This document shows, in pieces, positions 41,101 to 64,000 of a stretch of 64,000 bases of DNA. Below the pieces are notes generated by a model. The model ran no database searches. It saw nothing but the letters and a program-made list of their open reading frames with translations, and was not told the origin of the DNA. A program made the position numbers and the translations under genes. Source of the DNA: Schmidtea polychroa (lineage: Eukaryota); contig CM097885.1 of the NCBI GenBank assembly GCA_044892525.1, positions 200,260,001-200,324,000 on the forward strand, written 5' to 3'. Position 1 is the first letter of the stretch, and every line of letters begins with the position of its first letter.

Positions 41101-42433
41101 CGGTCATTTATTAACTGGATGTTCCACCTACTGAGTTTCTTCACCCCTCACGACACACCCAAGAAGGCATTCATTGCTGCCACCTCCTTGCACCGTCATG
41201 AGGGACCAATCAACTCTTTTCCATTCAATCAAATCAACAATATAATAATCAAACTGAATGATAGAAAATGCATAAATAAAATTTACCCGGCGACCATATC
41301 ATTTGGATCTCCGAGTATGATGTTGCTCCTCCTACATGATCGAAACCTCATCGTCTCCTTGGTGGATCTCTAATATGACAAATATCACTCTCTACAAATA
41401 TCACATTCTCTTTTCAGCATGTTCGTGATTTCTTATGCATACCAACCTTTCCACGGTGGTGTCCTCTACTGCAGTGCAATTCCAACTCGTCCACATCATA
41501 CTGGGAGCTCTCAGATGGTACAGTCGTCGGTACCATGAAGAAAGGCAACTTTTCATTTAAATAAATTTATTATAAGAAATTGTTTTATTATATTTATAAT
41601 GATTAACTAAATTAAACTAATAACCATAAATAAAACAACTGTCGAGGCATACCTTGAGTTTCGAAAACTGAAGTTAAATCGGTTGAATTTAAAATTTTTC
41701 CCGAATGGATTTGTAGTTTGGCCTCTATATATTTCTTCCTCGGTTTGGTTTGGTAATCTCTGAACTAGTTCGCTGTAGGATAATTAAAGGTTCCGAAATC
41801 TGTCAAGTCTGTAGAAAAATTTTTTAAAAGTGGTAGTATATAACGAACCGAAGTTTACCTGTAGAAAAATTTTTTAAAAGTGGTAATCTACAGATATTTT
41901 CCGTTCCTTATATATTATTTTTCGTCCAATCAGGACACGACTTGTTTGTATTTTTACTATTTATTATTATTTTTATGTTTTTTATTATAATATATTAGAT
42001 TTTAATGACTTAACTTATTTCCTATTATTATTTTATTTATTTTCTTATTTTTATTATTTTCCTCCTATTTTTCCTGTGGATTTATTGCTACTTTATTGTA
42101 ATATAATTTTTTGTTTTAATTAGACTTAAAGATAGTTTTATTTTTTATTTATTTCTTAAATTTCTCTTTTATTTGTTGTCACTTTTTTACTTATTTTATT
42201 CTATTTCATCTGCTGGGTCCTAAATCGCTTTATTTCTAAATCTCAAGGGGTTTATTGGGTTTTATTTAGTTTGTTTTACTTATTCTTATTCTCTTATTGA
42301 TATTTTATTGTTCCTTTTTGATTTATTAGCGAGAATTTGATGGTACTTTATATTTTTATTTTATTTCGTTTATTTTTCAAGGATTACTTTTCTATTCGCT
42401 CCAGTTTTCGAAACTCCACGTTTTAGCCCAACA
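38199..42433 (-). repeat. Putative 3' LTR, 4235 bp
   Basis: Bounded by TGTTGG (38199) and CCAACA (42433). TATA-like sequence near 41730, AATAAA near 41570, 27-bp direct repeats 41809-41835 / 41859-41885. The second LTR is not in the window and the PPT is non-canonical. Confidence 0.65.
38739..39500 (-). CDS. LTR-encoded hypothetical protein (CxxC, coiled coil, Pro-rich, basic NLS-like stretch)
   Basis: 253-aa ATG-initiated ORF in GC-richer sequence; CFSC, RKRKRPTRAEKNQKRR. Confidence 0.65.
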   Translation of the reverse strand: MATSSNNAKELRPCFSCADKNADIAQLHLYIGALKKRIDLYEGTWFSPPQMKEERKKILRLEHCRDSLLEESRCQRLTIKAQSEALHKVYTEAELAKRVREFPVLDGTNVFPRHHPSPTSSGSHCQGHGSQLPPIPPPVLSCHQPKIGGPTDPIVAPILVAPIGTTNTEKPPTTRKRKRPTRAEKNQKRRDAMTALETSLSAAKSKIQEITSSHSIPSKEVFRIVPAEGIKYIVDSRLPVDIDEILADGDNFV

Positions 42434-43291: not shown

Positions 43292-43346
43292 ACTACTATA
43301 CGAAAATTTTTATTTACAATTATTTACATTGATCATTCATCTTTAA

Positions 43347-45260: not shown

Positions 45261-45480
45261 CTTTGTCTAAATAACGATATCATTAACTTAACGTTGTACG
45301 CTTATATCTGGTTTATTATTTATTTATTTTTATAATTCGTTATAGGAGTTGTTTTAGGAGTTTTTCGCTTAAGTTTACCTTTGGTAGATTTGGGGGGAAT
45401 TTTTCTACACTACTATATAATATTTTACTGGATATATACGCCGATATTTACAATTAGTATATACAAAATTATTCGTCTCT

Positions 45481-46869
45481 CTACTCAGTCCTACCCTTCC
45501 CGTCTCGCCTCACCGCTATTTTCATGTATATAGTGTCGTTTCTCGTCATGTCTTCTACTTTCCGCTGTAGGATGAAATTTGGTGCTCCAGTTGCTGGTCC
45601 TTCTTCTTCCAAGGGCCTTTGGTAACATACGAGGTTTCCCGCTGTATGGAAACTCTGTTCGTGTATACTTTGATAGTTCATCATTGCGAGGTCTATTTTT
45701 GCTTTGAATGGCCATTCTATTAACTCGTCGTATGGCCCTTTGCACATCAAGAAGAATACTGAGAAATGCGTTCCGTATGCACTTCCATCCCCATTGGGGT
45801 ATGCTTTCATTTTCATTTTATACCCGTTTTTCCATGAGTAGAATGCTGGACTTAGTAATGTTGTATCCTTTCCATTTCTCGCTCTCTGCATCTTCTCTTT
45901 TACTCCCGTTATTTTCCATATGTACGGAGCCGTAGGTATTAATTCGTTGAGGTTTAATTCGCTTACTTTTTGATGTAGTTCTTTCACCATAATGTTGCTA
46001 GTTTCTACTAGATCTGTCTGTATCTTTGTACTTGTTCTCGCCTCTTCAAATGCTTCCTTTTCTTCCAATAGTTCTTTTACCAACGCTTTTAGCGAGACTA
46101 TTTCTCTTTCTAAGTTTTCGGTTTTCCTTTCGTTTTCCTGTAATACCGTTGACCATATTTCCGCGTGTGTTGATACGTTTTCTGCTAGATGTTGGGGTAA
46201 TTCCCCTCGGTGTAATTGTTTCGGACATCCCCATTTTCCTAGCACACACGTTATCTTTTTTCTTTCACACTCTTTTAGATGTTGAGCGAGTTTTATTACT
46301 CCGGGTTTATCGCATTTGTTGGGGCATTCTCCTCTGAATTCTGCGCACACTTTCTCCTCTTGTATGTTGTGATGTTGACTGATTAGTTTCTTCCAGGTGT
46401 CGTTTTCTCCGCAATACTCGCATTTCTCTAGTCTTTCTTCGCATCGACTTTGATGTTCTGCTTCTTCATTGACTTTAATCTCTTCTTGGCAACGTTTGCA
46501 TTGACTGATTTTATACTCACATTGCTCCATATGTTGCCTCACTTCCCATATCACTCCTCGCCAATTACATGGGGTGTTTTTACATCCTAGGTTTGCATTC
46601 AACATATCTTTTACAGCTGCTTTATCTTCGTTTGTATCTCCCAAACTTGTTATCATTGTTTCTTTGCATACTGGGCACCATTGTGGTCCCTTCTTTATTA
46701 TCTCCTCTACACATTCTCTGCACATTCTGCATCCACATCTGGTTTGGTGAGGTTCTCTTAATAAGCTCTTGCATATTCCACACGTTACATGGTTGTGTAT
46801 TCGAATTGTGGTGGACTTTCTGATTTGTTCAACAATTTCTCTGAATTCTTCTCGTTGTCGCTTATCCAT
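45481..46869 (-). CDS. TRAF: TNF receptor-associated factor homolog (RING - TRAF zinc fingers - coiled coil - MATH), intronless, inside the retroelement
   Basis: CGIC...CGCRMCREC...CPVC RING; CKNTPCNW...HMEQC and CEYC zinc fingers; MATH YIWKI...SPAFYS...GYKM...YPNGDGSAYGTHFSVFF...GPYDELIEWPF. Confidence 0.93.
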   Translation of the reverse strand: MDKRQREEFREIVEQIRKSTTIRIHNHVTCGICKSLLREPHQTRCGCRMCRECVEEIIKKGPQWCPVCKETMITSLGDTNEDKAAVKDMLNANLGCKNTPCNWRGVIWEVRQHMEQCEYKISQCKRCQEEIKVNEEAEHQSRCEERLEKCEYCGENDTWKKLISQHHNIQEEKVCAEFRGECPNKCDKPGVIKLAQHLKECERKKITCVLGKWGCPKQLHRGELPQHLAENVSTHAEIWSTVLQENERKTENLEREIVSLKALVKELLEEKEAFEEARTSTKIQTDLVETSNIMVKELHQKVSELNLNELIPTAPYIWKITGVKEKMQRARNGKDTTLLSPAFYSWKNGYKMKMKAYPNGDGSAYGTHFSVFFLMCKGPYDELIEWPFKAKIDLAMMNYQSIHEQSFHTAGNLVCYQRPLEEEGPATGAPNFILQRKVEDMTRNDTIYMKIAVRRDGKGRTE

Positions 46870-46958: not shown

Positions 46959-47342
46959 TTATTGGCTGGAAGAGTCGGCCTCTTGTCCGCCCTCTTCCCT
47001 GTTGGTTAACCATTCTGACCAGTCTTCTATCTCCTCTCGCTCCATCTCTTCCGCGATTCTTATTAACTCCTCTTCTTGCACCTGGCTGTATCGTGATATT
47101 CGGTCTATCTCTCGCTGCATTTGTTCTATTTTCATTCGTTGGTCTTCGATTATTCTTACATAATTGAAGCCTTTATTTAAACTTTCGACTAAGCTTCTTT
47201 GTACAGCGAGTCCTTGTTCCTGTAAATTCGAAATCACTTGAGTTAACATTGCACATTGTTGTTTCCACATCTCCTCGGTTGTTGTACTGTGGTTTACTTC
47301 CTCGCCTATTCGCTCCATTCTTAATTTATATATACTTTTCAA
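46959..47342 (-). CDS. Small accessory coiled-coil protein
   Basis: 127-aa ORF (TTG start; first Met at 47318), acidic W-containing tail, upstream TATAAGC. Confidence 0.6.
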   Translation of the reverse strand: MKSIYKLRMERIGEEVNHSTTTEEMWKQQCAMLTQVISNLQEQGLAVQRSLVESLNKGFNYVRIIEDQRMKIEQMQREIDRISRYSQVQEEELIRIAEEMEREEIEDWSEWLTNREEGGQEADSSSQ

Positions 47343-47486
47343 TCCTTATCTAATTTTATTTTCATATTAATTATCCCCATCATTATATACTATTGATACC
47401 GCGCTTATATAAAAATATAGAATACTGTTATATAAATAAATATTTCCTACTTACTTTTTACAATCTATATACAGTCATAATCCTTT

Positions 47487-50400
47487 CTATATACGTGAGC
47501 TTGGAGGGCGCTGAGCATTCCAGGCCTCCACCCACTGTTCCTGCTTGATATTACTTGGTCGTTTTACACGATGTTGAAAATTTCTTATTCTGGCCATTTC
47601 TAGTTCTCCGTGATGCCGTCTATCTTTGATTATTTTTATTGTCCCCCCCGTTATGATTAAAAAGGCCCCTGTTATTATTATGCCGCTGATCCACATCATC
47701 TGTTTTATGCTTATAATTTCCGCTTTTTCCTTGCTCGTTATTGTTGATATTGCTTCTGTGCTTTTTAGATTACCGTCTTTGCCATTTCCTTTCATCATTC
47801 CTCGTATTCTTGCTATTTCCTCGTTCATACCTTCCTTTGCCATTTTTTGTATTTTCTCCATCTCCTCCTCGGATACATAATTGTCTTGATGTTTCTCACT
47901 GTTTTTCTTGCGTTTTCCTTGCTCATCTTTTTCATCATCGATTTTTCTTTTCTTCCCTCTTTTCCCAGGGTATCGTCGACATTCTCTCGCTGTATCTTTT
48001 CTCCAGATGCATATTGTGTATTCTTTTGGAGGTTGTTGCTGTATTACATATTGTAGACAGTCTTCACCCGGTCTTAATCTTGCGATGCAGACTTTGTGTT
48101 CTTTTCTTGGCTGGAGTTGCGTTATCACTACCTCACCTCCTTTTCCCAGGTGTACCTCCTTCCCTTTGACTTTCGTTATTCTCTTTCCTTCTCGATTTCG
48201 GTATGCTTCTTGTATTCTTACTTCCGTTATTGGTTCTGCATCTTCATTTTTTAACACTAGTCTCTGATAAGCTCTAGACATACATCTTCCTAATATACAC
48301 CTTTCTTTTAAATCCCATTCTTCTTTTAGATCCCATTGCTGCTCTTGTACTTGTTTTTTCTTTTCTTGTTTTAGTTCTTCCTCTTTGTTGTCCTTATTTT
48401 CCGTTTCTTTGGCTTCTTTTATCGTTCTCATTCCTCCCTGGGCTGTTATCATTTCCACCATTGTTAGTACGAGTATCATTATCATCATATTTGTCTCCAT
48501 TTCTTTGTTGGTAAAAAGTAGGCATACCCTCTGTTTTCCACTATTCGTCTTTTCTTCTTGCTTCATTCGGTTTCTCGGGTTATTTTCCTCTTTTTTCCTA
48601 CTCGCGTCGTTATTTTCTTGATTATTCTCCTCTGATTTCTCTTTCTCTTTATTCCCGTTTCGACCTTTTTCATTATTATCGTCGTCTTTATCGTCTTTAT
48701 CGTCTTTATCTCCCCCGCTATCGTTTAAAATGTCGTCCTCGACATTTATATCATTCAACAATCTGCGGTATGCCGTTAGCACTCTGTTTCTTGCTAATTT
48801 TGCTTCGAGTTCGAACTCCTTTCTGCCTGTTGCTACATGTCTCTTTCTATTCCATTCTTTCACTAATTCTCTTAATTGTATCCGACGATGTTTCCCGATT
48901 CGCTTTTGTTCGTTTAGATTCTGCGTGAATTTGAGATCTTCCCTGTTTAATACGATCATTATGATTTTCGGAGTTCCTCCTTTTGTTAGTGTATTTTTAA
49001 CCATAGCATTTTCTCCGTTTTCGTAGAACTCATTTATATTTATTGCATATTTATTGCTTTGTGGTATTCTCCATGTTAGCAGCAACTTCATGGCTTCTAA
49101 GTTCATCCGTATCGTGTTCCATTGGAACTGTGACGTGTTTTTACAGATATTTTCTACCTCAGTTCTTGTAGCATTTTTACAAATGAATCTAATCATTTCC
49201 AAGTTTGGTTGTATTGTTGCCCAATCCATGGCAGAATTTCCTTCGTTTGATATTTCGTCAAGTCTTGATCCCGATCGATGTAGTATATGTAATGTTTTCG
49301 GGTGTATATTTGTTATGGCTGCATACATCATTGCTGTTTCTCCTTGTTCATTTTTTGCATTAGATTCTTCTCCGAAGTCTCTAAGGATTCTTATGATGGT
49401 TATTGCTCTGTTTTCTTTTGCTGCTAAAATGGCTTGTTGTAATGGTGTTCTTGAGTCTTTTGTTGGTAAGGTGAATGCTAGTGGTATAAATGTTTTTATT
49501 TTTCCTATGTCTAGATTTGTGGTCTGATCTCTTGCGTAGGTGTGTACTGTTTTGGTTATTTTTGCTAGTATCGCTTCATCGGATAGATCTTGCATTTCTT
49601 CAAAGAATACTTCTTTAGCCTTACGTACTACTATCTCTTGGTCGGAGTTTATTGTCTTTGGTTTACTTGTTGTTGCTATATCGGTTATTGGTTGATCGAC
49701 TTGTTCCTCAGACTCTCTTGCTTTTACTTTCTTCCTTTTTATCTTTTTCTTGTTCGAATTGTTAATGCGTTCCTCTGCCGTTAGAACTTGAATAATGCTT
49801 AGGTAAGTTTCTCGAATGTTGTTCATATTTTCCATCATATATAATACACTCACGGTTTCCCAAAATTTTACTTGTACTTTATCGGTAAATTGAGATATAG
49901 CTTTTTCGAAGTTGATAATTCGTTTTCTGATTAGTTGTTCGTCTTTGTGATTTGAGAACTTTATGCCACGTTGTAGTAGTTGATTTGGAATTTCGAATAG
50001 GTGATGTCCTCTCATCGCTTCTCTCATCAAGGTATTTTCTCCTTTGGTAAATGTTTCGTTTATATCTACCATATAATCGTTTTTGATCGGGTTCCTCCAT
50101 GCAATTAGTATTCCAGTAATTGTTATTAATTTCTCTTTGATTGCAGTTAATAGCCCGTCATACATGTTTCCTATCTCTCTATTATCCTCATATGATAATA
50201 GATCTACTAAGATTATGAAGGCTTCCGTACTTTTCCCTTCGATTGCATGATGTAGTGCATTTTTCTGGTTGTGGTCTTGTGTGGTTATCTTTGACCCAGT
50301 TTCAAGTAATGCGATGATAATATCTTTAGCTTTATCCCGATTGGCTGCTATCATTAGTGGAGTGTAACCTTGGTTGTTTTCTTGATCTGTCGAAATGTTA

Positions 50401-51566
50401 CAATCGCGAAATGCTTCAATTGTTTCTAATATCTGTTCGTTACTACCCACCTTTAAAAGCTTGTGCAGGGGTGTGTCTCCGTAATGGTCTGTGATCGTGA
50501 ATAATATAGGCCATTGACTTTTAACTACCCTGAGCAATGGGTGTGTTCTTTCTCGGTTTGCATAATTTTCGATCATTGTTAGCAGACCTCCCAATATCTC
50601 AAAATCTAATCTGTCTTCTGCCCATCCGGGCATTTTAACTTTTACTTCCTTTATGATTTTCTCGGCTTCTGATGGTTGTAACCCTAATCGATTACCTGTT
50701 GGTTCGTTTATTTGCTGTAACATGTTTATTCTATACGTTTGTGATCTTGTCGTTAGTGTACGTCCTTCTGGCTGACTGGTGGCGGTTTTCGGAATTGGCT
50801 TACATCGTGCAACATTTACGTATATTGGTCTTGTAAAAGGGTTGTTCACTAATCGTACTCTTACATTAGTTTCTCCGACGAATAGAATCTCATACGGCCC
50901 TTTACCGTTTCGTTGTAATTTTTTGGTGGTTCCTGGAATTAATTCTGGTGTTTCAATCATCACCCAATCGCCTGTTTGAAACGTATGCTGTTTGACGTTT
51001 TTCTTTCTATCATGTAACTCTTTGTAACTTTCTTGATAAAATTTTATATTCAATCCTGCGGTTTCCCAGATTTCCTGCATTCTTTCCTTGAACTTGGTTA
51101 CATAATCGTCTATTTCCATGTATTGTGATATCGGTGGCTGATATTCTAAATCCATTGGCATATTGCATTCTCTGCCGTACATCAACTTGAACGGACTCAT
51201 CTTTGTGGACGCGTGAATCGACATTCTGTAAGCCATTAGACATAATTTTATATATTCATCCCAGTCTCGTTGATGACGATCGACATAATTTGATAACATT
51301 TGAATCAGTGTTCCATTGAATCTTTCTGTCATACCATTAGTTTGTGGATGGTACGGTGATGTTCTTAATTTTGCGATCTTGAAGTAGTTGGTGACTTCGC
51401 TCATTATTTCGCTCATGAAATTCGTTCCTTGATCCGTCAGTATTTGTTTCGGCGTTCCATATCGACAACATATTTCCTCTACTAATATTTTTGCGATTGT
51501 TCTTGCTTTCTGATCTGCCATTGCGAATGCTTCGGGGAATTTTGTCAAATAATCTGTGATTACCAA
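47487..51566 (-). CDS. Polyprotein C-terminal part: integrase core, two ankyrin-repeat modules, signal/TM-anchored protein
   Basis: ITDYLTKF, LTDQGTNF, TERFNGTL (DDE); KGPYEI; GDTPLH, GYTPLMIAA, GETAMMYAA ankyrins; MMIMILVLTMV and WISGIIITGAFLIITGG hydrophobic segments. Confidence 0.93.
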   Translation of the reverse strand: MVITDYLTKFPEAFAMADQKARTIAKILVEEICCRYGTPKQILTDQGTNFMSEIMSEVTNYFKIAKLRTSPYHPQTNGMTERFNGTLIQMLSNYVDRHQRDWDEYIKLCLMAYRMSIHASTKMSPFKLMYGRECNMPMDLEYQPPISQYMEIDDYVTKFKERMQEIWETAGLNIKFYQESYKELHDRKKNVKQHTFQTGDWVMIETPELIPGTTKKLQRNGKGPYEILFVGETNVRVRLVNNPFTRPIYVNVARCKPIPKTATSQPEGRTLTTRSQTYRINMLQQINEPTGNRLGLQPSEAEKIIKEVKVKMPGWAEDRLDFEILGGLLTMIENYANRERTHPLLRVVKSQWPILFTITDHYGDTPLHKLLKVGSNEQILETIEAFRDCNISTDQENNQGYTPLMIAANRDKAKDIIIALLETGSKITTQDHNQKNALHHAIEGKSTEAFIILVDLLSYEDNREIGNMYDGLLTAIKEKLITITGILIAWRNPIKNDYMVDINETFTKGENTLMREAMRGHHLFEIPNQLLQRGIKFSNHKDEQLIRKRIINFEKAISQFTDKVQVKFWETVSVLYMMENMNNIRETYLSIIQVLTAEERINNSNKKKIKRKKVKARESEEQVDQPITDIATTSKPKTINSDQEIVVRKAKEVFFEEMQDLSDEAILAKITKTVHTYARDQTTNLDIGKIKTFIPLAFTLPTKDSRTPLQQAILAAKENRAITIIRILRDFGEESNAKNEQGETAMMYAAITNIHPKTLHILHRSGSRLDEISNEGNSAMDWATIQPNLEMIRFICKNATRTEVENICKNTSQFQWNTIRMNLEAMKLLLTWRIPQSNKYAININEFYENGENAMVKNTLTKGGTPKIIMIVLNREDLKFTQNLNEQKRIGKHRRIQLRELVKEWNRKRHVATGRKEFELEAKLARNRVLTAYRRLLNDINVEDDILNDSGGDKDDKDDKDDDNNEKGRNGNKEKEKSEENNQENNDASRKKEENNPRNRMKQEEKTNSGKQRVCLLFTNKEMETNMMIMILVLTMVEMITAQGGMRTIKEAKETENKDNKEEELKQEKKKQVQEQQWDLKEEWDLKERCILGRCMSRAYQRLVLKNEDAEPITEVRIQEAYRNREGKRITKVKGKEVHLGKGGEVVITQLQPRKEHKVCIARLRPGEDCLQYVIQQQPPKEYTICIWRKDTARECRRYPGKRGKKRKIDDEKDEQGKRKKNSEKHQDNYVSEEEMEKIQKMAKEGMNEEIARIRGMMKGNGKDGNLKSTEAISTITSKEKAEIISIKQMMWISGIIITGAFLIITGGTIKIIKDRRHHGELEMARIRNFQHRVKRPSNIKQEQWVEAWNAQRPPSSRI

Positions 51567-54500
51567 TATATATATATATTTCCTCTATCTGATTCTGGTA
51601 GTGGACCGACTACGTCCATTGATATCATTGTCATTGGTTCTGCTGGTACTGGCATTGGCTTTAATGGTGCCTTCCATTTTGTTCCCGTGTTTTTTCTGGT
51701 TGCGCAAGTTATGCAATTTTTCACCCATTCCGTTACATCCTCGGTCAATGTAGGCCAAAAATATTTTTGTTTCATTCGTGCCAACGTCTTTTTAGATGAC
51801 ATATGTCCTCCGAGTCTTCCGTCATGGTATTGTGTTAGTAGATCTTTACGTCTATTCTCGGGAATGCACATTAGTCTTTTCTCGCCATCCATTATCAATA
51901 ACCAATCTTTCTCGATAATATATCGATGTCGATGTTTATCCATATGCTCCTTCAATTTTTGATCTTTCTCATATACCTCTGCTTTCCCTGTTTTCACATA
52001 TTCAATGATTTGCTTCAACTCTGTATCCTCTTGTTGGTCTTTCCGTAATTGGCAAAAATCTAAATCTTCTGCTACCATCAGACATATTCGTTGCATTTCG
52101 TGATCTACTAAATCTGGAAAGATAAATCTGGACATACAATCCGCATTGGCATTCGCTCTTCCCGCTTTGAATTTTATGAACGGTGAATATTCTTGTAACT
52201 GCATTGCCCATCGCATCAATCTACTTGAAGCTTCTTTGTGTTGACCAAGCCATACTAATGGTTGATGATCCGTGGTGATACATATTTCGTGTCCCCATAA
52301 CAAATATCGAAAATGTTTAATTGCTTGTATGATTGCTAACGCTTCTCTCTCGGTTACGGAATAGTTTTTCTCGTGCTTTTTAAACGTTCTACTGTAGTAT
52401 CCAATCACTCTTTCTTTTCCTTCTTCATCCAGTTGTCCTAATATTGCTCCGGCTGCATATCCACTTGCATCTGTTGCTAATAGGAACGGTTTCTTGAAAT
52501 CAGGATGTACTAGTATTGGGGCTTCAATTAATTTATCTCGCAATGTCTCAAACGCTTTTTGTTGTTCTGCACCCCAAATAAATGAAATATCCTTTTTCAC
52601 TAATTCCTGTATTGGTTTCGCAATACCTGCATAGTTTTTGATGAATTTTCGATAATATCCGCATAATCCGAGAAATTCTTGAACTTGGGTGACAGTTTTT
52701 GGTGCTGGACATGTTTTTATTTTTTCTATGTTTCTTGGATCTGGTTCTTTGCCTTTTGCTGACACTATGTGTCCTAAGAACGTAACCTTTTCTTTTGCCC
52801 AATCACATTTGGATGGTTTAAGTTTCAGTTTCCATTGTCGTAATCGAACGAACACGTTTCTGATATCTTCCAAATGTTGTTCGAAAGTTGCTGAATATAT
52901 TAATAAATCATCAATATATACCATACACTGCTTGATCCCGTGTGTGACAAAATTCATACATCTCTGGAATGATGCTGGGGCATTGGTCAGTCCGAACGGC
53001 ATTTTCCTGAATTGGTATAGATCTCGGCCCAATGTGAATGCTGTTTTCTCTTTGTCTTCCTCCTTGACTTTGATCTGCCAATATCCACTTTTCAGATCTA
53101 AAGATGTAAAATATGCGGCCCCCTGTAACATAAGTAACATCTCATTGATGTCTGGTAAAGGGTATGTGTCTCTTTTTGTTACTGCATTTAATTTCCGATA
53201 ATCGATACAGAATCTCTGAGTACCGTCTTTTTTCTTCACCATGACTACTGGAAATTGCCATGGCGAACAACTTGGTTCGATCACTTGTGCATCTAGCATT
53301 TTTTGTACTTCTGCTTCGGCTATCTCTTTTTGCTTCTCTGCTAGTTTGTATGGACGTAGTGCGATTGGAGTTTCGTCTATTAATGGTATTGCGTGTAGTG
53401 TAACATCGCATGCTCCCAAATCTAAATCCGAAATTGCGAATATATCTTTATATTCTATCAATAATTGTTGAAGTCTCTCCTTTTCTTTTTCCGTTAGCAA
53501 GGTGCTATCAATTATCCATAATTCGTCCGCTTTCGTTGTTTCGTTGGTGATTTTTGGTAATTCGATGTCTATCATGGGTGTCAATCTACCCAATCTTTCA
53601 TTTTCATATATGATCTTGTCTTCTTCCTCGAAATTTGTGATGTTAATTGGTATTTCCCCGTCTTCATTTATTGTTATTATTTCTCTTGCTAATGGTAATT
53701 CTCGTCGTTTTTCGAATGATTTGCTTGGCTCAAAAATGACTTCTCCTTCCATTCCTGCATCCACTTTTATTTGACATATCATCTGTGATTTTGCGGGTAC
53801 AATTATTTTCTCCGGACATCTAATTATTGCGTTCATCTTGCATATTCTACCCATTTTGTCTTTTAGACACATTGTTGTTAAATCGATTACTACTTCCTTA
53901 AACAATTCCGGCATTAAATCCGTTCCGATTATACATGGTTCACTCAGTTTGGGTATCACCGCTAGATACGTTTCAATTTCGTTATCCTGATATCGTAACG
54001 TAGTCCACCATCTTCCTACTACGTCTACGGTTTCTTTACTGCATGCAATAATATGGATAGTTGTTTGTTCGATATCTTTCCAACATTTACTGGGTATTTG
54101 GTTTATTGCTATTGCTGATACGTTTGCTCCGGTATCTATCATTGCGCTTGTCTCTTTCCCGTTGATTTGGATCATGACTGTTACTGCCGCACCTCCTGGT
54201 GAACTCATCACTGCTATCGTTCTTACGTCGTCCGCTTGGTCTACACTTTTCGTTCTTCGGGTCGGCATATAGTTCATCCCTGGTTGACTTGGTAACTGTG
54301 GATACCTATTTTGTGTCATGGTCAAAGCTGTTTGTTGTCCAACGATATCTGGTGGTATATAACTTCCGTTGGCTATCCAGGTATTTGTTTTTTCTTTCTC
54401 CCAATATGGTGCTGTTTCTATTGGCTTTTCATTCGGGTTTCTACTTGGATATGGGTATTTGTCATTCCCGTTGTCGTCATCATCACTATCGCTGCTGTTT

Positions 54501-57500
54501 GATCGATTCCTAAATCTGTCTAAGAATTTTGGTTTGTTCTTTTTCAGTTGCGTCCTTGTTGCTTCATCATACATTGTTTTCCGAAATCGTCTACCGACTT
54601 CCTCGTCAGTTCCTTTTATTTTTGTCAGTATTTTGATCAATCGTTTTATTCTATGTATGTCTTTAGAATGACCGTGCAACACCATTGTTTTTGCCAAAAA
54701 TGGTAGAAAGCCTACTATCAATTTCCAATTTACCTTCTTTTCTCTCTTATAGATATCAAAACACGCTAACATTTGAGTCAATATTACTCTAACTATCTGG
54801 ATAATAAGAATGATTCCCAATATTCCTGCCATCATTTGACCGAACACTAGAAATCTTCCCCACATTGCTTTCATCATGTTTGACGTGGCTTGTTGAAAAT
54901 GATCAGGTGACAATAATAGTTCGTAATTGGGGCCTGACTGGAAATTCGTTCCCCCAGTTATGGTAACCATATTCGATAGAATGGATTCCCGTCTTGCTGG
55001 GAATAATACGTTTAATCGTGCCGTTTCTAAATCCTCTGGTGAGTACATACCTGTTTTTGACACATCAATTGGTTTGAAATCTTGTTCTGTTGCGAGTTCT
55101 ATTAGTCCAAACTTTTTAGGCTCTTGTACTTCGGTTTTTACTGGTAACATTATCCATTTCCCATCGGGTTTTTCATATAACGGTCCGTATGCATTTGAAC
55201 AGTTAAAGGTGTTCGGATAAAATCCAATTGGGTTCATGATTCGAGTGACGGGTTGAACGAATCTGTTTCGCCCTTTGTAACTAATTTCCAACTCGTTTGC
55301 GCATTTCCCTGGTGGAATTGTGGGCTTTCTTGGCAGTCGCGCAAATGTCTTGGTACATGCATATGTATACATTACCTCTCCCACCATTCTACCAAAATGT
55401 CCATCCGGTAACGGGAGTGATGGCATTGTGTTATCTGGGTGTGTTATTGCGATGGCTAATTTTGTTTTTAGTATCTCTTTATTCAATGAACAGTCATTTT
55501 GTATAAGATCGTAATACACTTTTTGCATTGTCGTTTGTCCTCGGTGGAACAAGAAGTCCATCTTATTATTGGCATACAGGTACAATTTTACGTCCTCCGT
55601 TGCTACCTTTCCCACTGCTCGGTCTATTACTTGCCTTGACATGTAGATACCTGCGTAGTTCGTCCGGTATACTATACTGTCACATTTGGTGGTCTCTTTT
55701 TCTCTAATGAATCTCATGCCGATGTCTGGATCATCGGTAATTAATGCCGTTGGTGTTTTTTGGGTTGTGAGTCTCTTTTCTTTGGGGGATGGCGGAACTG
55801 GTTTCCCATTTCGCATCCTTACGTTTCCATTCTCTTCATCGTCATCCTCGTTTTCGTAAATTTCTCCTTTTACTTCATTGAATAGAGCACTTTTTAACAA
55901 TTGGAGTCGGCATTTTTGGGTGTTAGCTTCATATATTATAGTCGAAATCCCCGTTCTACACACGTTTTCCGTAGCTCTGCATGCTGGGTTGGTTTTCATT
56001 TGATAGTTGTTTGCGTCGAATTGTGCTTCGTATTCCTTCAACTCCACTGTGTAGGACTCAATTACTACTACTCCTGATATCACCTCTCCTCTGATCGTAT
56101 ATGTGCCTCCGTTACATGATCCATCCGTTGATTTTACTCGTCCGGCTACATAGATACTTTCCGTCTTGATCATTCCGCTTTGTCCGTGTATTGTTACTCC
56201 ATCCCTGATTCTCATCGCTCCGGTTCTAAAAAGCTCTTTACAGTCTTCCCGTTGTATAGGTACTATTTCTTTATCTAATCCAGGTAATATGAGGGTTGAA
56301 TATGAGTATTGTCCACAGTAATATGCCAACACTTTCTTCGATACTACGCATTCTCTAGCTTGCGTTCTAATGAAATCTGATTCTTGGTATACGTGATAGG
56401 AGACTTTCTTTTTTACTATATCTAATTTATTCGGAGACGCCTGTCTACATTCCTCTATATCTCTCAGGGAGTATCTTTCTCCTATTATCGAATTGTCACA
56501 GTCGTAAATAGTAAATCCCGCGGCTCCACTGGTGCAGAGCATCCATATCATCATGGTCATCATTAGTGAATTAATCGACGCTTTTCTGCTGGCTGGGTCT
56601 TTCAATGGCAATTCCCATTCTAGCTTGTTTAGTAATTTCTTCAACCGAATTTGCATTGATCTCTCTTGCTCGTTTTTTCGTGGCGCTTGTATGAGTCTTT
56701 TCCACCCACCGGCGCGGATAATATGTGGTTCGATTGTATTTTCGATGATTGTAACGGTCATTTCTACATGATTTGCGAATTGTTTGTTAGGTATTTTCCT
56801 CGCTGCTAATCCCATCAAATTGTACATTAGATACGTTAATACTACTAAATGATGTTCGTCGTCGTTTGCGTTTAAAGTTAATTGTTCAATTACTCTTCTT
56901 GTCTCTTCCCAATCGGTTTTAGTGGTTTTTGTCTTCTCTTTGATTAATTTCGGAATTATTCCGGATATTGTATTCCATAGTTGTCTGGCGTCTACGCTTG
57001 CTACTTTTCGTTGCCATAACCGTCGCAATTGTGGGTTCGTTATTATTAGCATATCTTTTACTAGCTCTCGTATCCATTTTTCGCCTCTTTCGATAGTTGG
57101 CTGGGCCTCTTTTAGATCCCACACTATTTTATCCAGTTTCTCTAATCTGACTTGTCCTTGTTCTTGTTTCAGTTGTTCTCTAGTTTTAAATTCCGGTTTT
57201 TCTCCTTGCTTCTTGGGTCTCCCTTTTGCCCGTTTTTCCATCATTGTTCCGGCTTCCCTTGTATTTTCATAATTCGGGTTTCTCTCGTTATCCGTTCTTG
57301 GCAATGAGCTATCGTTGTTTCTCAGCCATTCGTTCCATTCGTCTATTATTTTGTCCGTTTGACCTTCTGGTGTTGCTTTCGTTGGTCCTTTCTGTCGTTG
57401 GAATTGTTCGTCGGTTTCGGTTTCTGTTGTATTATCGATAATCTCCTCGATACTCAGCTTATTTGGCTGCTGATAGCTAGTTGACGGTTGGCTTGTTGTC

Positions 57501-60500
57501 CATATTTCGGCTCCTGTCGGCCATCTTACCAGAATTGGTGATCTTTCTCCAGCTCCTTCATCGCTGTCTTCCAATATAATTTCCTCGATTTCCTCGGTTT
57601 CATTCGTTTTACTTGCCACTTTGTTAGGGCTTGGTGTACTCAAGCTACCTTTCGTAGGTTTACTGGATTTGCTCTTCCTTTTAATCGGTTTTCCCAATGT
57701 TTCTGCCATTGTCAATACATTGATCTCCCCCAATCTCATGGGTGTTATTCCGACATCTGCATTATCATCCAACGATTTTCCGAATAGTTGTAGGTGAAAT
57801 GGAGTTTCGTATGCTAATTTCTTTTTTAACTCTCTGATCTTTGTTGTTGGATGTACTTCTGTATCCTCAATGCTTTTGTCGGGATACTTGACTCGGATAC
57901 GATACCTTTCCTGGGTATCTTGTGCCCATTCTTGGTTTCTCCATTTCCTAATAATTTGTTCTAGCTGTTCTGGGTACCATTCGTTATATTGTCTGTATTC
58001 CTCAATCGCTTTCGCCATTTCTCTTAGATTGTGGATATTCTCTGATGTCTTTAGGATGATGTTAGCCAATGCTATTACTTGACGTTTTTGATTTTTTGTT
58101 CCCGTTGCTAAGATATCACCTAATTGTTTATATCTTTCCTTCTCTTCTCGTTCTCGAGCTTCCATCGCTTCTTCGCTGTCCATATCGGCATATTCGCGTT
58201 CTTTCTTTCTCATCGCATGAATATGTCTGGTTTCCGTTTCACTTTCTGATGTAACATCCGTTTCGCTTTCGTCGTCCGATGTCGATTCTATTTCGTCCTC
58301 TTCGTATTTTGGAGGTTCATCTTCCTCTTCTTCTGATTCGCTTTCTATCTCACCAATGTCTGTTTCCACGAAAATCCCTTTCCTGATTTCCCATTCTTTG
58401 TTTTCCGCATTCCACGTCCTTTCCCATGGGGTTCGTCTGCAGGATCTAACACTTAGTTTCTTTATTTTTCCTTGAAGCTCTTTTTCTTTTAGCCACTGTT
58501 GATGAATTTCAATTATCTCTACTGATTTTTGATATAGCGTTTTCATCCTGTCTCGTATTTCTTTCTGGTATGTTATATCTCTTGTTCGGAATTCGTCCAT
58601 GGGCAATATTCTGATGATTTGATGATTATCCCACATTCCCATTTCGCTTAGCGAGGTGTCGTCTTCGGCCCGTAATATTATTTTATCGTACATCATGACT
58701 ACGTCATCTATCATCCCGTCGCTACTCTCGCTTCGTACTTTTTCCGTTATCTCTTGGTTTATCTTGGTTACTAAGTCATCCACCGTACTCTGATTACTCA
58801 TCTTTATTCGTCGTTTCTCCTCGTTTGGTAACCATATGGTTATTTCTAATTTCTGCGGTTGCGTTTCTTTCAACCTTCCATATTTGTGGATCAAATTTAT
58901 GGTTCTCCAATCGCTCATCCTGAGCAATTCTGTATCTCGTAATCGGCTCATTAGTTCATGCATGTCTGGAGTTCGTCTTGCTATGAGTAAATCCCAGTTA
59001 TCTTCGACTTGTTCTTGAATTTGTTTGATTAATTTATCTAGATTTCGTCGCAAGGTGCATTGTTTTATTTGTTCCAGCTTCAGCTTGATGTTAAAATCAT
59101 ACTCGGCCTTGGCGTCTTTAGCCCATTCGTGAATATTTGCTGGTTGCTTCTCTTTATACAATTTCAATATTTGAGTTTCTCCTGGCCAGATCAATGCATC
59201 TATTAGGTGCATGTCTGGCTTAATTTGTTCTCCTTGATATTGATATAAATACTCTTTCTTTCTCGAGCTGCCCAAATGTTCTCTTATCCAATCAAAAAGC
59301 TCGTCTGTGACTGCATTTTTTATCCATATTCTCTCGAGTCCTTTACTCGTTCCGATTTTTATTACATAGCGTGTTGTCTCCGCTTGTTTCATTTTTTCCA
59401 TATACTTCTTTATTATCGCTTTTTCCTCGTTTGGTATTAGATCTTTTTCGTTTCTTTCTAGTTTCATTATCTTTTGTAAGAAGCGTTTATATGGTATAAG
59501 GTCGATGAACTCCTGGTTTCTTACTACCACTGGAAGTATTTCCTTTACTTGTTTTATCGCTTCTTCTCTTTCTTTTCTCAATTTCATTTCGATATTCTCG
59601 TCTTCGCTTTCGCTTGTCACGTCGCTTTCTCTTTCATCCTCATCTGCTCCGATCTTTTCTCTTAGTTGGTCGATATTTTCATTTAACTGTAACATTTCTC
59701 CACCAAGGCTACTCACATAATCCTCATCGTCATCTGTTGACAACACCTTCTTTGTTGTCCTCATCATATTAATTCGTAAATTTTTCATTCTTGGTACTTT
59801 CTTTAACTTTTTGTTCTCGAGTATCGTTAGCTCCTCTGAGTCTAATTCTCGTATCATATTATGCTTTAGATGATTAATCTGTTTTCCATTTTCGTTATTT
59901 TCTGCTTCTGCTTCTGTTTTTGTTTGCTCATTTTCTCTTTCGATTTTATCTTTTATCTTTTTCCAAAATATTTTCTGAATTCTCTGATTTCCTTTTAGCG
60001 GTGTTGTTGAATTTTCCTTTTTTGCTGCTGGAATTGTTTCTTTCGGTTTCTCTGGTTCGCTCATAGGTACAACTCTTGGATTTTTACCGTAATTGTAACA
60101 ATATTGCTCCTTTATCTCCTTTACCATCCTCATCATATTTATTCGTAGTGGTTGTTCTTGTCGCTGCTGAATTCGCTCTCTTTTTATCCTTTCTTCTTCA
60201 GCTTGTAGTCTTTGCCATTCTTGTGCATGTTGTTGCACTTCATAATTGTTAAGATTCTCGGTGCTTCTCATCATGCGTATATTCTGGGTTTGTTGTGGTA
60301 CTTGCTCTTGTCTCGGTCTCATCATTTGTTGCATCATCTGCTTCATTTGTGAAATTTCTTGCATCACATTCATTTGCTTTCCCTCACTAGGATTACTTTG
60401 TCGTTGCGGATTTGGTGCATAGTTATTATTTCGCTGTGGTGGTCGTTGCTGTTGGCTCCTTTCTCGACAGTCTCTTGAGATATGACCTGGTTGCCCGCAG

Positions 60501-61924
60501 TTAAAACATCCTCTCGATTGGCATATATTTTCCGTGTGTCCTCGTCGTCCACACCTATTGCAATTTGCGTTTCGGTAACAATCTCTATCCCAATGTCCTG
60601 GTTTACCGCATGTTCGGCATTGTTTGTTATCGTTCATATTTCGTCGATTATTAAAGTTGTTCCCATTGTTCGAGTTGTTGCGTTCACTGTTATTCCCGTT
60701 TGATCGTCCTTGTGGTGGTTTGAAAATTTGATGCGCACCTGGTATAAACTGATTCATCTTTGGTTCATGATTATTGTTATCTCCATTTTCCGTTTTCACC
60801 GCTGCTGTTGCGATTCTTCCTTCCTCTTGCATGACATTCATTTGTGCCGGGAGGTGTAGTTCGCATCTTGTGGCCCAATCTATAGCTTCCTCTAGTGTTT
60901 TACACATTTGACATCCCACCGAGGCCCTTACCTCTTCTCGGCGTAGTCCTTCTATGAAGTACCCAATTAAGTTTTCCTCCGGCAAGTTTCCGTTCATGGC
61001 CTTCTTTGCCAATCTTCGCAATTCACTTGCGTATAACGTAATTGACTCGTTTGCTCTTTGTTTTCTACTTGCCAGTTCACCTAACGCTTGATTTATCGGT
61101 TTGCTGGCTCCGAATGTTTTTCTCAAAAATGTTTTGATGTTTTCCCAATTGTCTAATTTCGTATTTCTTTCTTTTGCTTCCAGATACACTTCGAGTGCGC
61201 TATCGCACAAAAACAGAGGCATTCGTTTACTAATTGCTTCGGATGTCCATCCACACACATCGATATAGACTTCAAAATTGGTTATGAACGTTGCCAACTT
61301 GTTCGCATTCCCGTTGAACGGTTCGCCTCTAAATTTTTCTTTATATTCGTCGGTTTTTGCTACATTCATCTTGATTGGTTCTTGAAATGCTAAAATTTCT
61401 TTTAAATTTTCTAATGATGTAGCTAAATTATGGACGGATAATTCTTCTGTTGACCCGGTTAGGTTGTTTGTTATATCGGATAGACTTTCTCTACTTCTAG
61501 ATCGACTGGGCGTATGTCCGGCTGTGGGGTTTTCTTGATCGTATATCGGTGTTTTGTGGGGTCTTTTTGCTCCTTGTGATATTCCTCTCTGCTGCCTAAA
61601 TGATCGTCCTCTTTTGAGTTGATCTAATTCGTCTCCTGAAAATAATACGTCTCCTGGCTTACTTGAAGATCTAAGGTTGGGTTTATCCGTGATTTTCCTT
61701 TTACTCTTTTCTGTCTTTTCACGTGGATTTTCTACGGTTAGCGTCTGCTGAATTGGTCGAGTTCGGTTTTGATATTGTCTTCCTTTGTGCGGGTTCTGAA
61801 TTGCTTTTCCTGGGTTGTTTGTATATTCTCTGGATTCCTCTTGAGCTGGTTCTGAATTGACTTGGTTGGATTGATGTCTACAATGAAAATATGATATCGT
61901 GTTGCCTTTGCTTACACGAATCAA
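51560..61924 (-). CDS. Polyprotein N-terminal part: Gag, UBL x3, Bcl-2-like, envelope glycoprotein, PR, RT, RNase H, IN zinc finger
   Basis: Three CCHC knuckles; DTG protease (about 54130); YIDD RT (about 52915); DASG RNase H; H..RLGGH...CITC. Joined to 47487..51566 by a +2 slip in an (AT)n tract. First in-frame ATG at 61369. Confidence 0.95.
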   Translation of the reverse strand: MIRVSKGNTISYFHCRHQSNQVNSEPAQEESREYTNNPGKAIQNPHKGRQYQNRTRPIQQTLTVENPREKTEKSKRKITDKPNLRSSSKPGDVLFSGDELDQLKRGRSFRQQRGISQGAKRPHKTPIYDQENPTAGHTPSRSRSRESLSDITNNLTGSTEELSVHNLATSLENLKEILAFQEPIKMNVAKTDEYKEKFRGEPFNGNANKLATFITNFEVYIDVCGWTSEAISKRMPLFLCDSALEVYLEAKERNTKLDNWENIKTFLRKTFGASKPINQALGELASRKQRANESITLYASELRRLAKKAMNGNLPEENLIGYFIEGLRREEVRASVGCQMCKTLEEAIDWATRCELHLPAQMNVMQEEGRIATAAVKTENGDNNNHEPKMNQFIPGAHQIFKPPQGRSNGNNSERNNSNNGNNFNNRRNMNDNKQCRTCGKPGHWDRDCYRNANCNRCGRRGHTENICQSRGCFNCGQPGHISRDCRERSQQQRPPQRNNNYAPNPQRQSNPSEGKQMNVMQEISQMKQMMQQMMRPRQEQVPQQTQNIRMMRSTENLNNYEVQQHAQEWQRLQAEEERIKRERIQQRQEQPLRINMMRMVKEIKEQYCYNYGKNPRVVPMSEPEKPKETIPAAKKENSTTPLKGNQRIQKIFWKKIKDKIERENEQTKTEAEAENNENGKQINHLKHNMIRELDSEELTILENKKLKKVPRMKNLRINMMRTTKKVLSTDDDEDYVSSLGGEMLQLNENIDQLREKIGADEDERESDVTSESEDENIEMKLRKEREEAIKQVKEILPVVVRNQEFIDLIPYKRFLQKIMKLERNEKDLIPNEEKAIIKKYMEKMKQAETTRYVIKIGTSKGLERIWIKNAVTDELFDWIREHLGSSRKKEYLYQYQGEQIKPDMHLIDALIWPGETQILKLYKEKQPANIHEWAKDAKAEYDFNIKLKLEQIKQCTLRRNLDKLIKQIQEQVEDNWDLLIARRTPDMHELMSRLRDTELLRMSDWRTINLIHKYGRLKETQPQKLEITIWLPNEEKRRIKMSNQSTVDDLVTKINQEITEKVRSESSDGMIDDVVMMYDKIILRAEDDTSLSEMGMWDNHQIIRILPMDEFRTRDITYQKEIRDRMKTLYQKSVEIIEIHQQWLKEKELQGKIKKLSVRSCRRTPWERTWNAENKEWEIRKGIFVETDIGEIESESEEEEDEPPKYEEDEIESTSDDESETDVTSESETETRHIHAMRKKEREYADMDSEEAMEAREREEKERYKQLGDILATGTKNQKRQVIALANIILKTSENIHNLREMAKAIEEYRQYNEWYPEQLEQIIRKWRNQEWAQDTQERYRIRVKYPDKSIEDTEVHPTTKIRELKKKLAYETPFHLQLFGKSLDDNADVGITPMRLGEINVLTMAETLGKPIKRKSKSSKPTKGSLSTPSPNKVASKTNETEEIEEIILEDSDEGAGERSPILVRWPTGAEIWTTSQPSTSYQQPNKLSIEEIIDNTTETETDEQFQRQKGPTKATPEGQTDKIIDEWNEWLRNNDSSLPRTDNERNPNYENTREAGTMMEKRAKGRPKKQGEKPEFKTREQLKQEQGQVRLEKLDKIVWDLKEAQPTIERGEKWIRELVKDMLIITNPQLRRLWQRKVASVDARQLWNTISGIIPKLIKEKTKTTKTDWEETRRVIEQLTLNANDDEHHLVVLTYLMYNLMGLAARKIPNKQFANHVEMTVTIIENTIEPHIIRAGGWKRLIQAPRKNEQERSMQIRLKKLLNKLEWELPLKDPASRKASINSLMMTMMIWMLCTSGAAGFTIYDCDNSIIGERYSLRDIEECRQASPNKLDIVKKKVSYHVYQESDFIRTQARECVVSKKVLAYYCGQYSYSTLILPGLDKEIVPIQREDCKELFRTGAMRIRDGVTIHGQSGMIKTESIYVAGRVKSTDGSCNGGTYTIRGEVISGVVVIESYTVELKEYEAQFDANNYQMKTNPACRATENVCRTGISTIIYEANTQKCRLQLLKSALFNEVKGEIYENEDDDEENGNVRMRNGKPVPPSPKEKRLTTQKTPTALITDDPDIGMRFIREKETTKCDSIVYRTNYAGIYMSRQVIDRAVGKVATEDVKLYLYANNKMDFLFHRGQTTMQKVYYDLIQNDCSLNKEILKTKLAIAITHPDNTMPSLPLPDGHFGRMVGEVMYTYACTKTFARLPRKPTIPPGKCANELEISYKGRNRFVQPVTRIMNPIGFYPNTFNCSNAYGPLYEKPDGKWIMLPVKTEVQEPKKFGLIELATEQDFKPIDVSKTGMYSPEDLETARLNVLFPARRESILSNMVTITGGTNFQSGPNYELLLSPDHFQQATSNMMKAMWGRFLVFGQMMAGILGIILIIQIVRVILTQMLACFDIYKREKKVNWKLIVGFLPFLAKTMVLHGHSKDIHRIKRLIKILTKIKGTDEEVGRRFRKTMYDEATRTQLKKNKPKFLDRFRNRSNSSDSDDDDNGNDKYPYPSRNPNEKPIETAPYWEKEKTNTWIANGSYIPPDIVGQQTALTMTQNRYPQLPSQPGMNYMPTRRTKSVDQADDVRTIAVMSSPGGAAVTVMIQINGKETSAMIDTGANVSAIAINQIPSKCWKDIEQTTIHIIACSKETVDVVGRWWTTLRYQDNEIETYLAVIPKLSEPCIIGTDLMPELFKEVVIDLTTMCLKDKMGRICKMNAIIRCPEKIIVPAKSQMICQIKVDAGMEGEVIFEPSKSFEKRRELPLAREIITINEDGEIPINITNFEEEDKIIYENERLGRLTPMIDIELPKITNETTKADELWIIDSTLLTEKEKERLQQLLIEYKDIFAISDLDLGACDVTLHAIPLIDETPIALRPYKLAEKQKEIAEAEVQKMLDAQVIEPSCSPWQFPVVMVKKKDGTQRFCIDYRKLNAVTKRDTYPLPDINEMLLMLQGAAYFTSLDLKSGYWQIKVKEEDKEKTAFTLGRDLYQFRKMPFGLTNAPASFQRCMNFVTHGIKQCMVYIDDLLIYSATFEQHLEDIRNVFVRLRQWKLKLKPSKCDWAKEKVTFLGHIVSAKGKEPDPRNIEKIKTCPAPKTVTQVQEFLGLCGYYRKFIKNYAGIAKPIQELVKKDISFIWGAEQQKAFETLRDKLIEAPILVHPDFKKPFLLATDASGYAAGAILGQLDEEGKERVIGYYSRTFKKHEKNYSVTEREALAIIQAIKHFRYLLWGHEICITTDHQPLVWLGQHKEASSRLMRWAMQLQEYSPFIKFKAGRANANADCMSRFIFPDLVDHEMQRICLMVAEDLDFCQLRKDQQEDTELKQIIEYVKTGKAEVYEKDQKLKEHMDKHRHRYIIEKDWLLIMDGEKRLMCIPENRRKDLLTQYHDGRLGGHMSSKKTLARMKQKYFWPTLTEDVTEWVKNCITCATRKNTGTKWKAPLKPMPVPAEPMTMISMDVVGPLPESDRGNIYIYW
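54690..56576 (-). other. Envelope glycoprotein domain, chuvirus-G / herpes gB-like class III type
   Basis: Internal signal peptide ...WMLCTSGAAG|FTIYDC; Cys pattern ECVVSKKVLAYYCG.YS; CSLNKEIL...GEVMYTYAC...C.NEL.I.Y...FVQP.TRI; TM WGRFLVFGQMMAGILGIILIIQIV. Confidence 0.8.
56690..57090 (-). other. Bcl-2-like domain within the polyprotein
   Basis: BH2-like IEPHIIRAGGWKRLI preceded by a helical bundle with a W-containing BH1-like region; no NWGR motif. Confidence 0.6.
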
Positions 61925-63609: not shown

Positions 63610-64000
63610 CTAACTGAAGTAGATGGTGTGCTTCTCTTTTATTACACATGTGCACATAGAACAACGGATTAAACCGGCGGCGCATTCGTCACAATGGCTA
63701 AGGTGCCCACAAGGTAGAATCAGAATTTTGACAGGTCGCATCTTGCAAATGTTACAAGTTCTCAAGGCCGCTGCTTTCTCTACTATTGATGTTCGTATCC
63801 GCTGAGACAGAGTTTTGACTCGTTCGCGTATCCTCACATATTCGATGTTCAGAGCGGGGTCGTCGAGACGTTGCTGAAACCATTGGTAATGAATAGACAA
63901 GTCGGTATCGGTATTTGTTGATCCTAATCTGTCGGTTAGAAAGTTTTGTTTGGATATCAGCGGTGCGTTGTGGCTTTGTTGTTCTAGCAGTTCTATTTGT
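63610..64000 (-). CDS. C-terminal IAP/MDM2-type RING finger protein, 5'-partial (frame open to the window edge)
   Basis: CNICKMRPVKILILPCGHLSHCDECAAGLIRCSMC...TIYFS; the 33 codons upstream of 63900 are also open. Confidence 0.8.
   Translation of the reverse strand, partial: QIELLEQQSHNAPLISKQNFLTDRLGSTNTDTDLSIHYQWFQQRLDDPALNIEYVRIRERVKTLSQRIRTSIVEKAAALRTCNICKMRPVKILILPCGHLSHCDECAAGLIRCSMCTCVIKEKHTIYFS

Follow-up and report, generated by a model that had tools for sequence, protein, structure and literature searches.

The question raised by this locus, a 64,000-nucleotide window of the Schmidtea polychroa genome, is what an envelope glycoprotein is doing inside a retroelement reading frame, between Gag and the aspartic protease (PR), and what kind of element carries it there. 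On the minus strand, positions 51560-61924 form an open frame of 3,454 aa from stop to stop, which is the frame behind the residue numbers of the first-pass annotation. In the 3,269-aa frame (Table 1), the envelope segment at 54180-56576 (minus strand) corresponds to aa 1598-2397. Pfam matches fall in the order Retrotrans_gag (aa 51-144), zf-CCHC, PF24664, RVP (aa 2398-2489), RVT_1, RNase H and Integrase_H2C2; no Pfam match to a dUTPase was obtained between PR and RT. The layout is accordingly Gag, a weak Ubl/Bcl-2-like linker, a signal-like segment, an ectodomain with 14 Cys, one transmembrane helix (TM), a tail and PR-RT-RH-IN. Frame and domain order together bear out the initial observation of an envelope in frame between Gag and PR in one ORF.

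Table 1 Features of the element, in window coordinates except for the 5' LTR
Feature	Position	Strand	Evidence or remarks
Gag-linker-Env-PR-RT-RH-IN (N-terminal part) frame	51560..61369	-	3,269 aa from ATG at 61369
Accessory RING ORF upstream of gag	63610..64000	-	165 aa, start past window end; zf-C3HC4_3 E 6e-8
Gag (Retrotrans_gag and three CCHC knuckles)	60467..61219	-	Pfam E 9e-10 and 5e-8; three CX2CX4HX4C motifs
Two possible ubiquitin-fold domains, Gag-Env linker (weak)	57794..58870	-	PI3K_rbd E 0.003, ubiquitin E 0.018; both below Pfam cut-off
Bcl-2-like helical domain directly before signal segment (weak)	56690..57076	-	Pfam Bcl-2 E 0.017, below cut-off
Predicted internal signal peptide, aa 1599-1618	56516..56575	-	Cleavage predicted between aa 1618 and 1619; small -3 and -1 residues
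Predicted class III fusion ectodomain, chuvirus-G/gB type, aa 1619-2168	54866..56515	-	Pfam, fold model, Foldseek
Predicted transmembrane helix, aa about 2172-2202	54764..54856	-	KD 2.53; insertion score -0.1
Second, weaker hydrophobic helix, predicted on membrane rather than across	54677..54727	-	Insertion score +6.9 to +7.8
Tail, predicted cytosolic, and linker to PR	54179..54676	-	Poorly conserved
Aspartic protease	53903..54178	-	Pfam RVP E 1.8e-7
Reverse transcriptase and RNase H	52187..53239	-	Pfam E 2.5e-36 and 2.9e-39
Integrase (split), two ankyrin blocks, second signal-like segment, ectodomain, TM	47487..51865	-	
Second signal-like segment behind integrase	48432-48488	-	
TM behind integrase	about 47628-47699	-	
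Accessory ORF, TRAF-like (RING, zinc fingers, MATH)	45481..46869	-	Pfam MATH E 8e-25
3' LTR	38199..42433	-	4,235 bp; ends TG...CA
5' LTR	L001:549-4783		Just past window end

Profile searches and structure prediction identify the envelope of the window element as a class III fusion protein of the chuvirus-G/gB type. Its ectodomain contains 14 Cys and one N-glycosylation sequon, at N2056, and Pfam Monjiviricetes_fusion (PF24664) matches Env with an E-value of 5.7e-72 (best stretch 1869-2208). An alignment of 114 rows has 24 columns with an invariance of 90% or more, and all 14 ectodomain Cys fall in them. The AlphaFold model of the ectodomain, a predicted monomer, has a pLDDT of 91.4 and a central helix of 48 residues, and combines the gB/G-type fold, long central helix and conserved cysteines of class III; an F-type env identity was rejected. 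Ranks 1-4 of a Foldseek search of BFVD were glycoproteins of chu-related and similar negative-strand viruses (E 1e-37 to 1e-35, TM-score up to 0.74), and all 35 matches listed in a structure search of the PDB were herpes gB (best E 4.8e-14, with a TM-score of only about 0.4). A profile search of PDB sequences likewise gave gB in 34 of 36 matches (best E 0.0075), and a single-sequence search of the PDB with env gave no match under E 1. Env had no usable match in the ESM Atlas, and a comparison of the env segment with proteins of 345-1101 aa found no homologue and is uninformative, the HMMER representative search having given 1,016. The Cys-rich, chuvirus-G/gB-like ectodomain proposed at the outset is therefore upheld by PF24664, the PDB profile search and the fold matches, with Foldseek linking it to chuvirus G as well as herpes gB.

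The element carrying this envelope is about 30.6 kb long, lies on the minus strand and has a 4-bp target-site duplication. Its 5' and 3' LTRs are 99.95% identical (2 mismatches over 4,235 bp, BLAST), and an 18-nt primer site (L001:524-541), 7 nt inside the 5' LTR, complements the 3' end of the host tRNA-Pro plus CCA. An LTR pair search confined to the 64-kb window found none, because the 5' LTR sits past the window end. The window element is a recent copy, very young and well kept. The PR-RT-RH-IN order with gypsy-type Pfam domains, the paired TG...CA LTRs, the short target-site duplication and the tRNA primer site place it in Ty3/gypsy. No Pao-type family was present among its 11 Pfam matches, and a Bel/Pao (Anakin) identity was rejected, Pao-type Gag and Pol domains being absent by Pfam. 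Its sequence features, namely a length >30 kb, long LTRs, one giant ORF in unbroken copies, a Gag(3 CCHC)-Ubl-BCL2-env-PR order in which Ubl and Bcl-2 are below the Pfam cut-off, and ankyrin/TRAF/RING cargo, identify it as a planarian Burro-type Ty3/gypsy retroelement. In the window copy a frameshift near 51560-51584 splits the integrase, whose core goes on in another frame (47487-51584); the first-pass annotation mentions neither this break nor the second hydrophobic helix. The post-integrase segment has no usable ESM Atlas match; the corresponding ectodomain in a sister family gave no Pfam match, and its model is mostly beta, with a pLDDT of 41.7.

Membrane topology was predicted from hydropathy and an insertion scale, applied to 15 long proteins (a set with a misplaced TM window for P0004) and then to 22 in another form. 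Only three 19-residue windows in the 3,269 aa reach a KD of 1.4, all flanking the ectodomain: aa 1603-1621 (1.40), 2179-2197 (2.53) and 2213-2231 (1.41). A hydrophobic stretch lies ahead of the ectodomain in 14 of the 15 long proteins, the remaining one (P0011) beginning inside the ectodomain. The signal segment of the window element is Met-rich and, with a best 12-residue KD of 1.82, weaker than that of all relatives examined (1.94-3.45). Net charge around the second hydrophobic helix is +3 before and +6 after, and this segment scored +3.7 to +11.3 in all 14 long proteins compared. Stand-alone relatives gave +2.9 to +6.8, sometimes near their TM score, and the TM and second helix may therefore form a two-helix hairpin. 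Hydropathy and insertion scores predict a cytosolic PR, as the first-pass annotation required.

The arrangement recurs in many copies and in diverged relatives. All 74 scored copies are 98-100% identical across the whole 590-aa env query, and 39 of them lie in frames of at least 4,700 aa (one with a stop inside the match). Of 88 differences from a related sequence, taken from contigs of the single run X1, the 40 with the best support were listed, and 36 of these are synonymous (pN/pS about 0.04); sister-family copies have pN of 0.005-0.010 versus pS of 0.04-0.08. Env is under strong constraint, with an excess of synonymous change. Another family in the same genome (L003, L006 and L007), about 35% identical, encodes Gag, Env and Pol in a single frame, and a further one (L004 and L005) has the Bcl-2-like/signal/Env/TM order in common, with PR in frame in L005; the GGW motif of the Bcl-2-like domain is common to L003, L004 and L005. 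In nine of 12 long proteins from the top representative matches, the fusion domain is followed by an in-frame protease domain; the other three show none. A quick tree of 58 rows, picked for their similarity to the query, groups the Envs that sit within long proteins on a separate branch from stand-alone G proteins (13 of 14 rows, SH-aLRT 100).

We favour, at a probability of roughly 0.7, the reading that Env is the class III envelope of a Burro-type element, in frame between Gag and PR, and is likely made within one ER-threaded polyprotein. Synthesis would begin in the cytosol with Gag and the Ubl/Bcl-2-like linker; aa 1599-1618 would then serve as an internal signal, and cleavage by signal peptidase would release the N-terminus of the ectodomain on the luminal side. 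Transfer would stop at the helix of aa 2172-2202, and the weaker helix that follows would rest on the cytosolic side of the membrane, which would keep PR-RT-RH-IN in the cytosol. PR would separate Gag from its linker and detach Pol from the tail of Env. Trimers of Env would cover the particles and drive their fusion with the membranes of other cells; as parts of the same chain, Gag and Pol would also be brought to the membrane that holds Env. A published account of the processing of such a polyprotein was not found in the literature covered, which is incomplete, and may exist. In a high-copy family with a constrained env, processing and cell-to-cell spread are addressable from native RNA and protein. 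A far-reaching extension, which we regard as very doubtful, would have an infectious virus arise from a flavivirus-like polyprotein crossing the ER four times, with the signal peptide doubling as a Bcl-2-like tail anchor and a tether for unmyristoylated Gag, Pol held on the Env tail, the post-integrase membrane protein serving as the fusogen's attachment partner, and movement from stem cell to stem cell with death blocked.

Env could also be inserted as predicted and yet have a role other than particle spread: in budding within the cell, as a membrane anchor, in cell-cell fusion or in interfering with related elements. We consider this unlikely given the complete class III fold and the strong constraint on all 14 Cys in young multicopy elements, although particle or infection reports are absent from the literature covered, copy number is taken as evidence of expansion only in the available text of PMC13524379, and solo chuvirus-type G genes have been proposed to block entry (PMC7642597, available text).

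A continuous DNA frame might, alternatively, be expressed by splicing or early polyadenylation as separate Gag, Env or Pol messages, and not at 1:1:1. Retroelements usually require excess Gag, which counts for such messages, and inspection by eye shows a T-rich AG a short way ahead of each of the Gag, TRAF and 45260 ATGs, so the element's RNA may be spliced. The stop-free Gag-to-Pol frame kept in many copies and diverged families nevertheless makes separate messages rather improbable, and a crude scan, which would miss accessory-gene sites too, found no pyrimidine-rich acceptor ahead of either the signal or PR. The X1 contigs, whose RNA origin is guessed, cover 30 of 30 bins and show no intron-like ends in the 15 joints listed of 17, a result with no bearing on splicing. 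The integrase frameshift of the window copy would fit an artefact of assembly or an insertion by chance into a single dead copy, a reading of negligible probability against the near-identity of the 74 copies, the 39 very long frames and the same layout in other, diverged families and other datasets, on which the artefact was rejected.

As a Burro-type element with an in-frame class III envelope, the window element can be compared with several known systems. For Burro, an env in frame between gag and pol had already been reported in 2019 (PMC6431247). Judged by the available text of that review, the window element is like Burro/GYPSM1 in its length >30 kb, its giant ORF, which spans about 4,600-4,800 aa where unbroken, its Gag with three CCHC knuckles followed by Ubl-like, BCL2-like and env regions before PR, RT, RH and IN, and its cargo of ankyrin repeats, MATH/TRAF and RING. 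Unlike Burro1/GYPSM1 as described there, ORF1 of the window element gave no Pfam match to MATH_TRAF_C, the TRAF gene being a separate downstream ORF, and no Pfam match to a BIR domain was found in the ORFs scanned of the window element; on these sequence features it is not Burro1 as described. The same text relates the Burro env to Env of gypsy and to fusion proteins of mononegaviruses, whereas the predicted fold of the window env is class III. Anakin, a group of Pao elements with chuvirus G (PMC7642597, available text), and chuvirus glycoproteins belong to the same fusogen family by PF24664 and the top BFVD matches, but the Anakin backbone is Bel/Pao, unlike that of the window element. The first-pass view that class III captures are known in Bel/Pao rather than gypsy elements is contradicted by the available portions of PMC13524379 and PMC6431247, the former describing gB-type env as widespread in Ty3/gypsy and a GAG-ENV-POL order in Platyhelminthes, Nematoda and Bryozoa. 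The HSV/gB-type errantiviruses Smed_errantivirus_1-6, as presented in the available text of PMC13524379, resemble the window element in Ty3/gypsy Pol, gB-type env, GAG-ENV-POL order and multicopy state. By eye, the L003 env is near-identical to Smed_errantivirus_2 and those of L004 and L005 resemble Smed_errantivirus_1. The window env matches none of the six exactly; by eye Smed_errantivirus_5 comes nearest, agreeing at about half of the first 100 residues aligned. For these six, that text gives no LTR or tRNA, and the word Burro occurs nowhere in it; the window element, unlike them, has its LTRs and tRNA-Pro site identified. The layout, with env in frame in a gag-env-PR order, is already published, and the window element is a further example of it and no new kind.

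The envelope lies in frame between Gag and the protease of a giant polyprotein (ORF1), as the first-pass annotation had claimed; the single open frame and the Pfam order of Gag, fusion domain, protease, RT and RNase H confirm that this arrangement is real. The integrase core and ankyrin repeats resume in a different frame, which indicates a frameshift near 51560-51584 in the window copy. The genome carrying the window yielded 2,840 first-look candidates for the env segment, and all 74 scored were 98-100% identical, 39 of them in frames of at least 4,700 aa and 15 in 4,811-aa frames. As 4,811 aa is the sum of the window copy's two frames, we infer from length arithmetic that ORF1 would normally extend from Gag past the integrase to the ankyrin repeats.

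Features of the window, the element and related loci (aa, residues of the 3,269-aa frame)
Feature	Position	Strand	Details
ORF1 open frame	51560-61924	-	3,454 codons; 3,269 aa from ATG at 61369
Retrotrans_gag	aa 51-144	-	Pfam
CCHC knuckles	aa 251-301	-	Pfam
Bcl-2	between CCHC knuckles and fusion domain	-	Pfam, weak
Env segment	aa 1598-2397	-	
Monjiviricetes_fusion	after Bcl-2, before protease	-	Pfam, E 5.7e-72
Protease	aa 2398-2489	-	Pfam
RT, RNase H, integrase zinc finger	in that order after protease	-	Pfam
Integrase core, ankyrin repeats	47487-51584	-	different frame
Post-integrase signal-like segment, ectodomain and TM	47487-48488	-	same layout at L012:3-1595
3' LTR	38199-42433		4,235 bp, TG...CA ends
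5' LTR	L001:549-4783, just beyond window		4,235 bp, TG...CA ends
LTR ORF	38739-39500; L011:2290-3051	- (window)	253 aa, ATG-started
Four accessory ORFs	42665-45266 and 46959-47345	-	345, 234, 214, 128 aa
Tandem repeats	62589-63026		73-80 bp
rve integrase and PLA2-like ORF; double jelly-roll ORF	1983-4703	-	Pfam
Tc5/pogo-like DDE transposase ORF	16268-17446	-	Pfam
tRNA-Pro array (L009)	G000:C1:130901009-130952345		475-bp spacing

By its predicted fold (AlphaFold pLDDT 91.4, pTM 0.70), the envelope belongs to the class III fusogens. In Foldseek searches the leading BFVD matches were glycoproteins from chu-related and similar viruses (E 1.4e-37, TM up to 0.74), and every one of the 35 PDB matches listed was a gB of herpesviruses (E 4.8e-14 at best, TM about 0.4), bearing out the earlier proposal of a chuvirus G/gB-like class III protein; a sequence profile picked gB weakly in the PDB (34 of 36 matches, best E 0.0075). 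Among 1.84 billion representative sequences phmmer found 1,016 env relatives, and 14 of 14 ectodomain cysteines are at least 90% invariant in a 114-row alignment. In a quick tree of 58 of 117 usable rows, picked by similarity to the query, envelopes in long proteins form one branch, separate from stand-alone G proteins.

A Pfam search of the genome gave 68 places and revealed further env families; six of the places were fetched (L003-L008). Gag through integrase lies in a single frame in L003, L006 and L007, at about 35% identity; a break interrupts Gag in L008, and a third family is represented by L004 and L005, both broken. Across the three loci compared, the alignment takes in the Bcl-2-like helix, the signal, the cysteines, the TM and the second hydrophobic helix. 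Twelve long proteins were taken from the search of representative sequences, and in 9 of them a protease domain follows the fusion domain. Two protease-like stretches lie 3' of env in the long proteins P0002, P0003, P0004 and P0015; another, P0006, is deposited under a Flavobacteriaceae MAG and probably stems from animal DNA in a bin.

Substitution patterns indicate that selection keeps the envelope. Of 88 differences in the env region between the window and contigs of X1, a run only guessed to be RNA, the 40 best supported were classified; 36 of these are synonymous, against a chance expectation of about 22-29%, and none falls at codon position 2. Sister-family copies gave pN of 0.005-0.010 versus pS of 0.04-0.08.

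Just three 19-residue windows of the whole protein reach a KD of at least 1.4, and they bracket the ectodomain, a single one on its N-terminal side and a pair on its C-terminal side. In 14 of 15 long proteins the ectodomain start is preceded by a hydrophobic segment, and small residues stand where signal peptidase would be expected to cut; the window's signal is the weakest examined. On a membrane-insertion scale, the first helix after the ectodomain scores near zero and the second +3.7 to +11.3 in 14 of 14 long proteins; the second helix of stand-alone G proteins can score close to TM. The window's second helix has basic flanks. On the simplest reading of this hydropathy, the chain would cross the membrane once in and once out, with PR, RT and IN remaining cytosolic. 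The signal begins about 40 residues after the Bcl-2-like domain and, since Bcl-2 proteins carry a tail anchor at the matching position, just C-terminal of the domain, it may by analogy serve both as env signal and as tail anchor. Gag position 2 is not glycine. Gag, Env and Pol may be produced 1:1:1; among sequencing runs catalogued as RNA, none contained the stretch. Our literature search found no report on processing of such a Gag-Env-Pol polyprotein.

Behind the integrase, the polyprotein closes with another signal-like segment followed by an ectodomain and a TM, a layout also seen in P0002, P0006 and P0012. No Pfam match was obtained for this region, and the ectodomain of a sister family gave a low-confidence predicted fold; by eye, several relatives carry a motif resembling fibronectin type III. 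No fibronectin-like protein in such elements was found in the literature search.

The element totals about 30.6 kb; its LTRs differ at 2 bases, a 4-bp duplication borders the pair, and an 18-nt primer site matches the end of host tRNA-Pro with CCA added. The tRNA-Pro pattern has 2,164 matches genome-wide, and tRNA-Pro genes form a long tandem array. Among the accessory ORFs, a TRAF-like gene lies downstream and a RING gene upstream; the leader that separates the latter from gag contains tandem repeats. The LTR ORF lacks a Pfam match; the four others are mostly coiled-coil-like, and the 214-aa product looks to have a TM. Elsewhere in the window, the ORFs with rve integrase and jelly-roll domains make up a Polinton/adintovirus-like remnant.

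The architecture is already published, PMC6431247 having described an in-frame env between gag and pol of Burro in 2019, and the class III envelope is real and well conserved. The premise that such captures belong to Bel/Pao rather than gypsy does not hold: according to PMC13524379, env genes of gB type are widespread among Ty3/gypsy elements, and nematodes, bryozoans and flatworms have the GAG-ENV-POL order. Six Schmidtea families are listed in that paper. L003 is near-identical by eye to its Smed family 2, on which ground the host is taken to be a planarian; the window env is none of those six. PMC13465017 and PMC8532177 describe, respectively, a role of Burro1 in stem cells and a rise of BURRO1 RNA after PIWI loss. 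The window element is at most a further Burro-type family and may equal Burro-2, -3 or -4; identity with Burro1 as described was rejected because MATH sits outside ORF1, in its own ORF.
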